DNA of 64,000 nt from an uncultured Prevotellaceae bacterium (GTDB lineage: Bacteria; Bacteroidota; Bacteroidia; Bacteroidales; Bacteroidaceae). The stretch spans positions 4,176-68,175 of the forward strand of contig CACZIT010000008.1 of assembly GCA_902781315.1 (NCBI GenBank), read 5' to 3'. Of the stretch, positions 31,819 to 36,316 are shown piece after piece. Numbering within the stretch: position 1 is the first letter of the stretch; every line of letters starts with the position of its first letter. Under the pieces are notes generated by a model that saw nothing but the letters and a program-made list of their open reading frames with translations, had not been told where the DNA came from and did no database searches. Both the position numbers and the translations under genes were made by a program.

Positions 31819-32712
31819 TTACTCGTCGGAGGCTATGCGCTGGAACTCGCCGAATGCGGGTGTGCCTTCACCACTGAGGGTGACTGGCAGCGAGAGTGTG
31901 GGCATGTCGTCGTAGATGAGCACGGGGCTGTCCGCGAACTTCACGCCGGGCACCACCTGCAACTGTACCTGACCACCCGCGAGGTCGTAGAACAGTTGTT
32001 CGCCAATAAAAAGGAGAGGACTCTCCCCCTGCCCCTCCCTATCAGGGAGGGGAGTAGTTACCTTTTCTTGCGGAGACTTTTGATGCAGAGGGATATCACT
32101 CCCCTCCCTGATAGGAAGGGGTTGGGGGAGAGTCGCCAGAGGAGTGACGCCGTCGGGGGTGACGCTGCAGAGCGTGACGCTATCGCCGTCGAGGGTGTAG
32201 CCCAAGCGCTGGCAAAGGGCCTGCTGTACGTCGTAGGGATTCACGACAGCAGCCACGTAGGCCGAGTCGTTGTCGTGGAAGCGAATCTGATAGAGCCACT
32301 CCACACGCACGCCCGAACCCTCCATGGCGCTGCTGGTGAGCCAGAGGTTGCCGGTCTGCGCGTCGTAGCAGGCCATGGGTTGGCGCGTGTTGCGGATGTT
32401 GAGGAAGGTGGTCGACGTGGAACCCTTCGTAACCATGATGCCATAACCTTCAGTTGACGTCGTATCGACCTCGCCGATGCCACAGACGCTGATGCTGTTG
32501 GCCTCGTCGCTCAGGATGTCGAACGGGTGCACCTTCAAGGCCTTCCCGTAGGCTTCCTGCACATGCTGCGGCGCGGTGTCGGCAGGTAGGGGCGCATCGA
32601 GGGTTCCTGCCACGAGGCGAACGCCCGACTGCTTGGTCTGGCAACTATTCATCAACACACTCAGACCGCCCAGAAAGATGACGGCGGCTGCTATCACTAG
32701 AATCTTTTTCAT
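31819..32712 (-). CDS. Hypothetical lipoprotein with in-frame REP doublet, possibly C-terminally truncated
   Basis: Lipobox LMNSC; insert 32019-32134; coding-like in-frame sequence continues beyond the TAA. Confidence 0.75.
   Translation of the reverse strand: MKKILVIAAAVIFLGGLSVLMNSCQTKQSGVRLVAGTLDAPLPADTAPQHVQEAYGKALKVHPFDILSDEANSISVCGIGEVDTTSTEGYGIMVTKGSTSTTFLNIRNTRQPMACYDAQTGNLWLTSSAMEGSGVRVEWLYQIRFHDNDSAYVAAVVNPYDVQQALCQRLGYTLDGDSVTLCSVTPDGVTPLATLPQPLPIREGSDIPLHQKSPQEKVTTPLPDREGQGESPLLFIGEQLFYDLAGGQVQLQVVPGVKFADSPVLIYDDMPTLSLPVTLSGEGTPAFGEFQRIASDE
32019..32134. repeat. Inverted doublet of the 37-bp palindrome (arms 37 bp, spacer 42 bp), in frame
   Basis: GACTCTCCCCCTGCCCCTCCCTATCAGGGAGGGGAGT and its reverse complement with three mismatches. 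Confidence 0.9.
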
Positions 32713-32727
32713 TGCATTGTTATCATT

Positions 32728-32768
32728 AAAGGAGTTCAAGGAGTTTTTAAGGAGTCCAAGGAGTTCAA
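32728..32768. repeat. Four imperfect AAGGAGTTC nonamers
   Basis: aaggagttc-aaggagtttt-taaggagtcc-aaggagttcaag just upstream of the lipoprotein start. Confidence 0.7.
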
Positions 32769-32840
32769 GACAATAGCATCATCTACTGCCATTCCCTTTT
32801 CACTTACTATTTCATTTTGATTCGACCTCTTGTTACTTTG

Positions 32841-34424
32841 TTACTTTGTTACCTTGACATGGCTTCGCCAGCCGTAGACCATGATGATAAGGAAGCAAAC
32901 GAATGGCAGCACGTAGGAGACGTTCACGGCGGGATGGCCGCAGATGGTCTGCTGGTCAATAATCATGCCTTGCAGAGGTGGCATCAGGGCTCCACCTACG
33001 ATGGCCATCACGAGGAAGGCTGCGCCGAGGGTGGTGTCCTGGGCGTCTACATTCTCGAGGGCGATGCCATAGATGGTGGGGAACATGAGCGACATGAAGA
33101 AGCTGATGCCCACGAGGCAGTAGAGTCCCACCATGCCCACGATGCAGATGGCGCCGAGCGAGCACAGGGCGGCTCCGATGGCAAACACCGAGAGCAGCAC
33201 GCGCGTGTTGACATAGCGCATGAGGAACGTTGAGATGAACCTGCTGCAGAGGAACAGCGACATGGCGACGATGTTGTACATCTGCGCCGTAGCTTTGTTG
33301 ATGCCCAGATAGTCGGCATATTGAATAATGAAGGTCCACGTCATGATCTGCGCGGCCACGTAGAACATCTGTGTCACCACGCCCTCGCGGTAGATGCGGT
33401 TGTGCCAGAGGTTGGAGAGGGTGTGGGCGATAGAGGGAGACCCTCCCCCCTGCCCCTCCCGGGCCTCTCCCCCAGCCCCTCCCCTATAGGGAGGGTAGCT
33501 TTGGAGGGGAGTAGTATGCCCTACTGTTTGTTGTGCTTGCTCTGAAGAGTAATCACTCCCCTCCCTCGCAGGGAGAGTCTTCTCGTCTTTGATGAGCCAT
33601 GCAATCAAGAAAGCGACAGCAACCACAACCAGTCCGATGGCCACGTAGGGATTGCGTATCACGGCGAGGTCGTGCAGACGGATGTCGGCTTTCTCGGCCT
33701 CAGAGAGCAAGGGGAAGATAATCTGTCCGGCGGCGTCGCGCTTGTCGCTGATGAGCTGTGGCAGCACGATGAGCGAGGCCACGGCCATGCCGCAGAGCGA
33801 GCCCATGGGGTTGAAAGCTTGCGCGAGGTTCAGTCGGCGGGTCGACGTCTCCTTCGAACCCAGCGAAAGGATGAATGGGTTGGCAGTCGTCTCGAGGAAA
33901 GCCAGGCCGAACGTCAGGATGTAGAGCGACAGGCAGAAGAACAGGAAACTCTGCTGCTGGGCGGCGGGTATGAAGAGGAACGCGCCGATGGCATAGAGGG
34001 CCAGTCCGAGCAGGATGCCCCGCTTGTAGCTGTAGCGGCGAATGAACAGGGCTGCCGGCACGGCCATCGTAGCGTAGCCGCCATAGAAGGCGAACTGCAC
34101 CATCGACGCCTTGGCAGCCGAAAGTTCCATGACGGTCTGGAAGGCTGCCACCATCGGGTTGGTGATGTCGTTGGCAAAGCCCCACAGCGCAAAGAGCGAT
34201 GTGATGAGGATGAAGGTCAGGAGGTACTTGCGGGGTACAAGGGCAGACTCCGCAACCTCTGCAGACCCACTCCCCTGCCCCAGAGACCCACCCCCCAGCC
34301 CCTCCCGGGCCTCTCCCCCAGCCCCTCCCCTATAGGGAGGGTAGCTTTGGAGGGGAGTAGATACTCTTGTTTGGTTGTTTTCTAAACTGTTGTTCATATT
34401 CGGTTTGATTTCATCAATTGGCAT
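32841..34424 (-). CDS. fucP: L-fucose:H+ symporter (MFS) with two in-frame palindromic inserts
   Basis: FILITSLFALWGFAN, AFYGGY, LETTANP, RRLNLAQAFNPMG, SLMFPTIY, AIVGGALMP; downstream of fucI. Confidence 0.92.
   Translation of the reverse strand: MPIDEIKPNMNNSLENNQTRVSTPLQSYPPYRGGAGGEAREGLGGGSLGQGSGSAEVAESALVPRKYLLTFILITSLFALWGFANDITNPMVAAFQTVMELSAAKASMVQFAFYGGYATMAVPAALFIRRYSYKRGILLGLALYAIGAFLFIPAAQQQSFLFFCLSLYILTFGLAFLETTANPFILSLGSKETSTRRLNLAQAFNPMGSLCGMAVASLIVLPQLISDKRDAAGQIIFPLLSEAEKADIRLHDLAVIRNPYVAIGLVVVAVAFLIAWLIKDEKTLPAREGSDYSSEQAQQTVGHTTPLQSYPPYRGGAGGEAREGQGGGSPSIAHTLSNLWHNRIYREGVVTQMFYVAAQIMTWTFIIQYADYLGINKATAQMYNIVAMSLFLCSRFISTFLMRYVNTRVLLSVFAIGAALCSLGAICIVGMVGLYCLVGISFFMSLMFPTIYGIALENVDAQDTTLGAAFLVMAIVGGALMPPLQGMIIDQQTICGHPAVNVSYVLPFVCFLIIMVYGWRSHVKVTK
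33439..33579. repeat. Compound palindromic insert in the FucP central loop
   Basis: Contains a 63-bp block (33452-33514) identical to 34298-34360. Confidence 0.9.
34264..34362. repeat. Compound palindromic insert in the FucP N-terminus
   Basis: Encodes TPLQSYPPYRGGAGGEAREGLGGGS. Confidence 0.9.
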
Positions 34425-34452
34425 AATTACTCTTCACTTGGTATTGCATTTC

Positions 34453-34489
34453 ACTCCCCTCCCTTCACGGGAGGGGCAGGGGGTGGGTC
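34453..34489. repeat. Intergenic copy of the 37-bp palindrome
   Basis: Reverse complement GACCCACCCCCTGCCCCTCCCGTGAAGGGAGGGGAGT. Confidence 0.9.
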
Positions 34490-34498
34490 TTTTCCTTT

Positions 34499-36316
34499 TT
34501 ACTTATACAGTGCTCCGAAGTTCTGGCAGGCACGATAGTCGGCGCCCTCCTTGTCCATGCCGAAGGCATTCCAGGCGGCGGGACGGAAGATGTCGCTGTC
34601 CTCGATGTTGTGCATGCAGACGGGGATGCGCAGGATGGAACAGAGCGTCAGCACGTCGGCACCGATGTGGCCATAGGCAATGGCGCCGTGGTTGGCACCC
34701 CAGCAGTTCATCACCGAGTAGACGTCCTTGAAGCAGTCCTTCTTCTCGTCGAGGCGCGGCACAAACCACGTCGTGGGCCATGTGGGGTCAGTACGGCGGT
34801 CGAGGACATCATGAATCTCGGCTGGCAGTTCCACCGTCCAGCCCTCAGCGAGCTGCAGCACGGGGCCGAGGCCCTCCACCATGTTCAGTCGCATCATCGT
34901 CATCGGCATGCCGCCACGCGTCACGAAGTGGCTCGAGTAGCCGCCGCCACGGAAGTAGTCGCGGTCGGCAGGCATCCAGTTGGTAGCCTTCAGGCAGGCT
35001 TCCACGTCCTGCTCGGTGAGTTCCCAGTGGGGCTTCATCGTGGGATTGCCGTTCTCATCCGTCATGGCGCCCGTAGCATCGAGCGTCGTGGCACCACTGT
35101 TGATGAGGTGGATGAAGCCACCGGCAGCCATGCCCTCAGGACGCTTGCCCGTGACGCGCTCCACGGCCTCGGGGCTCCAGTAGGTGCGAATGTCGGAGAA
35201 CATCACGCCTCGATTGGTCAGCAGGTGGCCGAAGAGCATCGTCATGCCGTTGAGGAAGTCGTTCTCCGTGGCCAGCACATTGGCTTCGCGCGGCCCGTTC
35301 CAGTCGAACGACGTGCACATCATGGATTCGGGGAAGTCGAAGTTGGGCTTGTAGTCAGTCCACTGCCGCTGTCCCTGCACGCCACCTGCGATGGCGTTGT
35401 GGCCCAGAGCCTCCTCCTTGTAGCCCATCTCGCGCAGGCGGTCGTTGCCGTGCATGAGGTCGCGGATGATCATCATCGTCTTCACCGTGAACTCCCAGTC
35501 CTCGTCCTTCTCCTGGCGGTTCTTGCCCTTACCCTTGCCGTTGAACGTGGTCATGGGCGTGCCGGGGAAGAGCGGGCGGTCTTCGTTGTAGTCATGACCC
35601 TCCTGCGGCTTGCAGTACTTGTCGACCCACTCCATGGCCTTCCGGAACTCCTCGGGGTCGAAGATGTTGAAATCAACGCGGCGCAGCACCTCCACCAGCG
35701 ACACATACTCTGTGCGCATGCCGAGATAGTGCTGCAGGAAGTCGGCGTTGACGATGGAGCCGGCAATGCCCATGCAGGTGTTGCCCAGCGACAGATAGGA
35801 CTTGCCGCGCATCGTGGCCACGGCCTGGGCGGCACGGGCAAAGCGCAGCAGCTTCTCGGCCACGTCGGCGGGAATGGTGTTGTCGTCGAGGTCCTGCACG
35901 TCGTGACCGTAGATGCCGAAGGCGGGCAGCCCCTTCTGGGCATGGGCAGCCAGCACGGCAGCCAGATAGACGGCGCCCGGGCGCTCCGTTCCGTTGAATC
36001 CCCACACGGCCTTCGGGTAGTGCGGGTTCATGTCCATCGTCTCCGAGCCGTAGCACCAGCAGGAAGTCACGGTAATGGTGCTTCCCACGCCCTCGCGCTC
36101 GAACTTCTCGGCGCAGGCAGCGCTCTCGGCCACGCGGCCAATGGTGCCGTCGGCAATGACGCACTCCACGGGCGAGCCGTCGCCATTGCGTAGATTGCTC
36201 TCAATGAGGTTTTTCACTGCGTTGGCCAAGGCCATCGTCTTCACTTCCAGACTCTCGCGCACACCGCCCTGACGACCGTCGATGGTGGGGCGTATGCCAA
36301 TCTTCGGATACTTCAT
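34499..36316 (-). CDS. fucI: L-fucose isomerase
   Basis: [60 protein letters not shown]. Confidence 0.95.

Follow-up and report, generated by a model that had tools for sequence, protein, structure and literature searches.

Identical 63-nt segments in a Prevotellaceae fucP gene as parts of nested arms of a genome-wide hairpin repeat family

The fucP gene of an uncultured Prevotellaceae bacterium, which encodes an L-fucose:H+ symporter, carries the same 63 nucleotides (nt) twice within one reading frame. The gene lies in a 64,000-nt stretch of contig CACZIT010000008.1 (assembly GCA_902781315.1, positions 4,176 to 68,175), hereafter the window, in which positions are counted from its first letter. 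The 63-mer forms part of GC-rich hairpin "arms", a repeat family dispersed over the whole genome. Its presence at two sites of fucP is probably explained, as a whole, by a double invasion of the gene, a single origin of a composite arm in which one hairpin is nested in the loop of another, and local copying of this composite from arm to arm. The genes and the two copies are as follows.

32841-34424, minus strand: fucP (L-fucose:H+ symporter), 527 amino acids (aa), assigned by TIGR00885 and alignment to 3O7Q
34499-36316, minus strand: fucI (L-fucose isomerase), the operon gene directly upstream of fucP, assigned by TIGR01089 (1060 bits)
33452-33514, strand not assigned: 63-nt exact repeat, central-loop copy, from direct comparison
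34298-34360, strand not assigned: 63-nt exact repeat, N-terminal-tail copy, from direct comparison

Both copies are read in the same frame (translation TPLQSYPPYRGGAGGEAREG, residues 23-42 and 305-324), and their letter-for-letter identity within one open reading frame (ORF) is as the preliminary description of the window had reported. With flanks, the match extends to 76 of 78 nt (33437-33514 versus 34283-34360) at a spacing of 846 nt, and the exact 63-mer occurs at these two fucP sites alone in the 3.52-Mb genome. The concern, raised at the outset, that the repeat could be an assembly artefact was rejected. At least 23 contigs, which come from many samples, encode the exact 527-aa protein. 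Six loci, each from a different ENA assembly, were checked: their gene DNA is identical, and the two 63-mers are spaced 846 nt apart in all of them. The record names of these independent assemblies point to at least two assembly pipelines. The double-insert arrangement is real and stable at the consensus level of the assemblies.

Judged from sequence comparisons, the ORF at 32841-34424 encodes a genuine FucP. It scores 519.1 bits against the TIGR00885 equivalog model (cut-off 280.4), the central insert dividing the match into two parts. The twelve-helix core, typed as major facilitator superfamily (MFS), is collinear with the solved E. coli FucP, the linkage to fucI is present, and the LETTANPF motif matches CLETAANPF of the E. 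coli protein, as read from the alignment to 3O7Q. In this HMMER alignment, residues 58-288 correspond to chain residues 15-235 and residues 331-518 to chain residues 246-429, such that one insert precedes chain residue 15 and the other comes between 235 and 246. On the basis of this two-block alignment, the inserts are assigned to the N-terminal tail and to the link between the two six-helix halves. Both inserted segments are hydrophilic, rich in glycine, proline, and serine, and lie outside all hydrophobic stretches. A poor AlphaFold2 model (27-sequence alignment, mean pLDDT 48.5) has no helices at residues 1-64 and 278-331; this low-confidence model was used for the absence of helices only, and the placement of the inserts was taken from the sequence alignment to 3O7Q. 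The view that an MFS fold can tolerate extra length at these two positions agrees with the relatives, as large indels among 27 aligned sequences are confined to the N-tail site, the central site, and the C-terminal end. The central link is often longer in 80 further loci too, in which only the N-tail and the central link were read.

The ancestral start of fucP is probably the second ATG, at 34397 (MNNSLENNQTR...), the position at which FucP of the relatives begins. The tail ahead of the N-tail arm reads MNNSLENNQTRVS and is followed by the arm 13 codons after this ATG; relatives without the N-tail arm read MNQPEMKPQTR.SALVP... Since armless relatives keep the ATG and the upstream codons, the start codon is taken to be ancestral, and the candidate role of the element as the source of the start codon was rejected, the ATG and its 13 codons lying upstream of the arm.

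The inserts and the arms around them were delimited as follows, A-type and B-type denoting two subfamilies of arms.

34284-34358, minus strand: N-tail composite arm, 75 nt (an A-type arm, 39 nt in its simple form, plus the nested unit), from the allele DNA alignment
34306-34348, minus strand: nested B-type segment of the N-tail arm, 43 nt in place of a 7-nt loop, net +36 nt, from the allele alignment
34248-34283, minus strand: 36-nt "tail", made up of a partial copy of the arm end and 15 further nt
33438-33579, minus strand: central-loop element resembling a miniature inverted-repeat transposable element (MITE), about 141 nt or 47 codons, from the allele DNA alignment
33460-33502, minus strand: nested B-type segment of the central right arm, identical to 34306-34348
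34453-34489, plus strand: third A-type arm, intergenic and simple here, 10 nt past the fucI stop

The nested segment is a B-type arm (GGCCTCTCCCCCAGCCCCTCCCC-TATA-GGGAGGGTAGC) within the hairpin loop of an A-type arm. The 63-nt identity consists of this nested 43-nt arm plus invariant A-arm sequence at both sides. At the N-tail site, 13 codons past the ancestral ATG, insertion of a simple arm adds 42 nt in total, and the 36-nt tail is present in the window allele, L021, L026, and L033 and absent from the other alleles. The central element comprises a composite right arm (33438-33512), a 42-nt spacer (33513-33554), and a left arm (33555-33579), the last shortened by a 12-nt deletion in the window allele; the intact element of L021 and L033 has a left arm of 37, a spacer of 42, and a right arm of 38 nt (about 117 nt). 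The third arm is inverted relative to the N-tail arm. An intein, an intron, and a known RNA family were considered as the identity of the inserts and rejected, the inserts being low-complexity segments of 37 and 47 aa. In 31900-34700, Rfam gave nothing at the gathering score and only sub-threshold matches to generic hairpins (miRNA-type).

Arms of the family have the form GACCCACCCCCnGCCCCTCCC-loop-GGGAGGGGAGT or its reverse complement. Hairpin units of the pattern CCCTCC(C)-loop-(G)GGAGGG number 238 (strict) or 306 (relaxed) in the genome, and the core pattern occurs 10 times in the window, where 0.05 occurrences are expected. Many units are paired about 69-70 nt apart, forming two-armed miniature elements of about 104-129 nt as measured by regular expression; the element ends are ambiguous in this measure, which leaves it uninformative as to whether full elements are multiples of 3 in length. 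By a census that rests on crude gene calls and gives rough counts, 219 of the 306 units lie within ORFs, mostly in the frame TPLPxREGxGGGS or, in the other orientation, PTPxPLPxREGS.

In a search of the genome for DUF559 (PF04480), four matches were full-length and one was a fragment. Inverted arms enclose all four full-length genes, each gene having its own arm subfamily. The gene at C1:91663-91980 has B-type flanking arms (GCCTCTCCCCC..., of the form GGCCTCTCCCCC.GCCCTCCCC-loop-GGGAGGG...), like the nested unit, and the gene at C1:190203-190514 has A-type flanking arms, the same type as in fucP. The latter gene is the likely parent of the fucP arms, which would be end-pieces of DUF559-nuclease cassettes, here without the nuclease. 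This match contains one in-frame TAG near its 5′ end, and the gene may be inactive in this strain.

The 36-nt A-type arm (CTCCCCTCCC-loop-GGGAGGGGCnGGGGGTGGGTC) is also found in many genomes of Sphingomonas, Allosphingosinicella, and Novosphingobium and in some of Chloroflexota (L112-L190, e.g., L139:603-638 and L141:6047-6082). In these genomes, it often lies directly 3′ of a stop codon, and in two Sphingomonas loci, it is located 24-30 nt from a DUF559 homolog. A pairing of arm and nuclease common to several phyla would be implied.

The comparison of fucP alleles that the preliminary description had proposed was carried out, and it displays a conspecific series with stepwise arm states. The DNA of ten conspecific alleles was retrieved after a protein search, and two more alleles came from a metagenome scan; the allele states are drawn from metagenome assemblies. 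The alleles are 96-98% identical in nucleotides in shared columns and on this basis are assigned to the same species. The closest orthologs in two sister species (G003 and G008) are 435-436 aa long and lack both inserts, as do many metagenomic relatives. The states at the two sites are listed below.

N-tail site, empty: P0006-8, P0016
N-tail site, simple arm: P0003, P0009-P0018, L031
N-tail site, arm plus tail: P0005
N-tail site, nested arm plus tail: window, P0002/L021, L033
N-tail site, simple arm with an unrelated 78-nt insert: P0004/L027
Central site, empty: P0018/L030, many other species
Central site, collapsed to a single hairpin, with three different junctions: L026, L028, L029
Central site, full element: L021, L024, L027, L033
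Central site, full element plus nested unit: window, L022/L023, L031

The nested unit occurs in the N-tail arm only (L021 and L033), in the central arm only (L022, L023, and L031), or in both, which is the window. The intergenic arm upstream of fucP carries the nested "TATA" unit in L027 and L030, and a "CAAA" variant of the unit sits in the element arm of the neighboring gene in L024, L025, and L027.

At least ten separate indels distinguish the alleles (42, 36, 36, 78, +84 net, 12, 36, −69, −69, and −81 nt), and all are multiples of 3, for which the chance is (1/3)^10, or about 2e-5. Because of this regularity, the fucP frame is considered to be under selection and the inserts to be translated in a functional gene. 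The inserts would be tolerated by a working gene and are presumably neutral for transport. The three collapsed central forms are deletions between 8-nt direct repeats (CCCCTCCC or GGGAGGGG) inside the element; short-range, repeat-mediated, in-frame deletion does occur in the central element and has done so at least three times.

The presence or absence of the old arms has a different signature. Between the window and L030, which has no central element, 33 of the 71 differences fall in one 100-nt bin next to the site, and the fucI-fucP spacer is entirely different in alleles that lack an arm in the N-tail. As diverged tracts adjoin the sites, these states are proposed to have been swapped as allele segments by homologous recombination, and they do not appear to result from clean excision or insertion. 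More distant relatives (P0019-P0025, about 80-85% identity) also carry degenerate arms at both sites, on the basis of which the primary arm insertions are held to be old.

In the allele at L027:1357-2910 (P0004), another double-hairpin repeat of 73-78 nt (CGACTGGGGACTTTAGAGCAGCCACTAATGTGGCTGC...) lies in frame within the stem of the N-tail arm. Six copies of this repeat (about 90% identity) are present in the genome of the window, including C8:83871-83943.

The identity of the two copies can be approached through the junctions of the composite arms. These are the same in all composites, ...CCCCTCCC-GG|GCCTC... and ...GGGTAGC|TTTG-GAGGGGAGT, and the outer 3′ stem of the composites lacks 4 nt that simple arms have. 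At these sites, simple arms differ in their loops (CTCCAC, CTCACA, CTTCAC, CTGCCC...). Since identical scars replace differing simple-arm loops, one origin followed by templated copying is favored; independent insertions are disfavored because each arm's own loop bases would have been kept. An identical tract that includes the junction scars, at sites whose unconverted forms differ, is the pattern by which paralogous conversion is recognized, and it is seen here. The inner loop "TATA" is confined, across strains, to three arms of the fucP locus. "CAAA" composites lie at C1:200136, C3:83093, and C1:191400 and, in other strains, in the arm of the neighboring gene, and no composite arm was found in a scan of representative genomes of other species. 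The two mismatches between the 78-nt copies, at 33444 and 33451, are arm-specific and retained, and the adjacent arm bases are invariant family-wide.

It is thus hypothesized that fucP underwent two old invasions by arms of a selfish GC-rich hairpin repeat. A solo arm would have landed in the cytoplasmic N-terminal tail and a two-armed miniature element of about 117 nt in the central cytoplasmic loop; both insertions, being multiples of 3, would have been translated as Gly/Pro-rich loops (TPLPxREGQGGGS) and tolerated. Within the species, a composite arm would have arisen once by nesting of a B-type arm in the loop of an A-type arm and would then have been copied among neighboring arms of the latter type at the fucP locus, through gene conversion over short tracts or through template switching. 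The copying is possibly nuclease-stimulated, in that DUF559 would cut simple arms and repair would copy the composite. In the window strain, both fucP arms would have been overwritten by the composite, giving the 63-nt identity. To the observed anatomy, strain polymorphism, in-frame maintenance, and DUF559 link, this scheme adds conversion as the copying mechanism, which the sequence pattern suggests.

The preliminary description is partly supported by this outcome. Its proposal of recent local copying or gene conversion agrees with the identity of the copies, the shared junction scars, and the confinement of "TATA" to the fucP locus. Its picture of one 63-bp insert present twice has to be replaced, as the two sites were apparently colonized separately and long ago, and sister alleles carry arms without the nested unit.

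Several points weigh against a double invasion followed by arm-to-arm copying. Beside the nested segment, the homology amounts to about 25 nt (including 2 mismatches) at one end and 12 nt at the other, and such short stretches are a poor substrate for RecA-type conversion. As the adjacent arm sequence is invariant family-wide, no flanking marker can delimit a conversion tract. The change could have run either way, from simple to nested or from nested to simple. Metagenome assemblies can mis-join at repeats, a worry that would be countered by the recurrence of several states in independent assemblies, all in frame.

A broader reading of the same material is tentative and less likely than not. 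According to it, the arms are recombination and landing pads with loops that are repeatedly overwritten, a hairpin-in-hairpin composite spreads locally with every step kept a multiple of 3 by selection, and the Sphingomonadaceae arms next to DUF559 would point to a cross-phylum, undescribed class of gene-invading repeats. The overwriting of loops could proceed by DUF559-nuclease-stimulated conversion or by hairpin-templated strand switching. If this reading is true, the fucP locus captures, in living strains, the evolution of a nuclease-linked hairpin family inside genes.

Alternatively, the nested unit may be a tiny mobile element that inserts independently into the hairpin loops of arms, by site-specific transposition or driven by a nuclease. 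This alternative is unlikely, although it draws on the fact that the nested unit always has the same position and orientation within the A-type arm and on a solo B-type arm at C35:28608 that lies between the short inverted repeats GTTTCC...GGAAAC. Arms do attract insertions, because the unrelated 73-78-nt repeat, with its six genome copies, entered the same N-tail arm in L027. However, the junctions are identical everywhere, including the loss of 4 nt from the outer stem and the replacement of target loops that differed, and independent insertion from a genome-wide pool would not confine "TATA" to one 3-kb locus and "CAAA" to others.

Ordinary allelic recombination between an N-nested (P0002-like) and a central-nested (P0003-like) strain is an improbable source of the double-nested allele. 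The population does contain both kinds of single-nested allele, and the table of single-nucleotide polymorphisms (SNPs) is mosaic with frequent recombination. Nonetheless, the window matches the N-nested L021 on both sides of the central element and does not switch to SNPs of the central-nested L022 or L031 downstream, making a simple crossover between single-nested alleles unlikely. At most, a very short tract would have been imported, and an earlier paralogous transfer is still needed to account for three arms. Under arm-to-arm copying, the L021-like flanks would fit a very short copied tract.

A functional device, either a switch that deletes the N-domain (phase variation) or an RNA structure regulating fucP translation, is highly improbable: the direct repeats are 846 nt (3 × 282) apart, short repeat-mediated collapses of the central element have occurred, and a predicted pairing of the upstream arm with the N-tail arm would enclose the start region (−116 kcal/mol, z = −4.6), but no deletion allele was seen in the assemblies, and at least six samples contain the intact allele in identical form. 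The arrangement is missing from most strains and from all sister species, half an MFS protein consisting of the C-domain alone is generally not expected to transport, and the structure would be a by-product of the palindromy of the repeat. The preliminary description had proposed that the repeats could remove the N-terminal six-helix bundle in frame. Its arithmetic is correct (282 codons), but the event is hypothetical, and no 846-bp deletion allele was seen among the assembled fucP alleles, which represent consensus sequences that rare variants would escape. An MFS transporter without its N-domain is expected to be inactive; the product of such a deletion, the native tail fused to the C-domain (245 aa), would accordingly be expected to be so, and the idea of a deletion switch has no support so far.

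The predicted pairing comes from an RNA fold of 34240-34500 (minus strand), in which the upstream arm pairs with the N-tail arm and encloses both candidate start codons in a loop of about 100 nt. It would be relevant if fucI and fucP are transcribed together; at the fucI-fucP junction, a scan for sigma-70 promoters and for terminators gave no hit. The G-rich strand of the arm (GGGAGGGGCAGGGGGGTGGG, e.g., 33438-33459 and 34284-34305) has four G-tracts that fit a G-quadruplex motif and is the mRNA sense strand in fucP.

Among known systems, the closest in mode of action are the Rickettsia palindromic elements (RPE), which are short, multicopy palindromic repeats found in frame in many unrelated genes (PMC10969869). 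Orthologs lack them, and the conserved peptide that they add does not destroy the protein (PMC10969869, section 4.2). The fucP family is likewise dispersed, palindromic, multicopy, in frame, and missing from orthologs. In contrast to RPE, it occurs in another phylum with another sequence, its units are smaller (39-nt solo arms and doublets of about 117 nt) and very GC-rich, its arms are the inverted repeats that flank DUF559 genes of the same genome, it forms nested composites, and its presence or absence varies in a series among living strains of one species. With its GC-rich Bacteroidota composition, the family is unlikely to be homologous to RPE and is likened to them by mode of action, not as a member. 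The QMITEs of Coxiella burnetii are MITE-like and in some cases occupy ORFs in frame, internally or at the ends, altering protein termini (PMC5896051). The likeness to the fucP element, itself an in-frame, MITE-like repeat within an ORF, is partial. QMITEs are mostly at gene ends or in hypothetical genes, and neither a nuclease-cassette parent nor hairpin-in-hairpin composites have been reported for them.

Repetitive extragenic palindromes (REPs), with their BIME and REPIN arrangements, are imperfect palindromes of about 35 nt, often in inverted doublets and with hundreds of copies per genome. By definition, they lie outside genes, and the genes associated with them are RAYTs of the Y1 (HUH) type. 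The fucP family shares the palindromes, the frequent inverted doublets, and the hundreds of genome copies, but about two thirds of its units lie inside ORFs by the crude calls, the fucP copies are translated, and the gene that its arms flank encodes a DUF559 (Vsr-like) nuclease. Vsr-like homing endonucleases of the EDxHD/DUF559 type suggest a small nuclease gene of the PD-(D/E)XK Vsr fold as the likely engine here. As co-conversion predicts, the presence or absence of the fucP inserts tracks diverged flanking tracts; in contrast to homing systems, there is no intron or intein context, and the fucP copies are arms without a nuclease. Quasipalindrome-templated mutation, or intrastrand template switching (the Ripley model), is known from point and small-cluster mutations in the laboratory. 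It would explain how a looped-out segment is copied between imperfect hairpin arms with very short flanking homology, whereas in fucP a 43-nt nested hairpin would have to be transferred between arms 109-846 nt apart. In a full-text literature search, no report of elements of this kind, either in Prevotella or with a link to DUF559, was found.

The fucP case is a clear but not unique instance of repeat DNA translated within a working protein. It represents an RPE-like, seemingly unpublished repeat family and not a new kind of phenomenon. What began as the curiosity of the same 63 bases found twice is resolved into a natural series of about ten conspecific alleles in which selfish hairpin DNA was gained, nested, collapsed, and copied step by step in a working membrane transporter with its frame kept. 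The phenomenon of in-frame MITEs, known mainly from Rickettsia, thereby becomes directly testable in an abundant rumen bacterium. The questions raised concern the enzyme that moves or copies the arms, whether the copying is local conversion, and how much extra loop length an MFS transporter tolerates. On its own, fucP is one case of a genome-wide family, and its weight is illustrative, not foundational.

Another element of the family is found next to fucP in the window.

32019-32134, minus strand: full A-type element, read in frame in a 306-aa lipoprotein-like ORF (31819-32739, minus strand)

This neighboring ORF has a signal peptide followed by a cysteine and no NCBIfam match, and its two-armed element is translated as PLPIREGSD...TTPLPDREGQGES. 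In the rumen Prevotella fucP orthologs L036, L042, L059, L060, L067, L079, L086, L088, and L095, in which the N-terminal tail and the central link were read, the central loop contains unrelated extra sequence, such as other repeat families and tandem EVRGTLGENS-type repeats. The genome of the window (G000) also encodes a second FucP-like MFS paralog (C9:16629-17795, a 415-aa frame), which matches neither insert and is about 45% identical to FucP in the N-terminal half and 25% in the C-terminal half.

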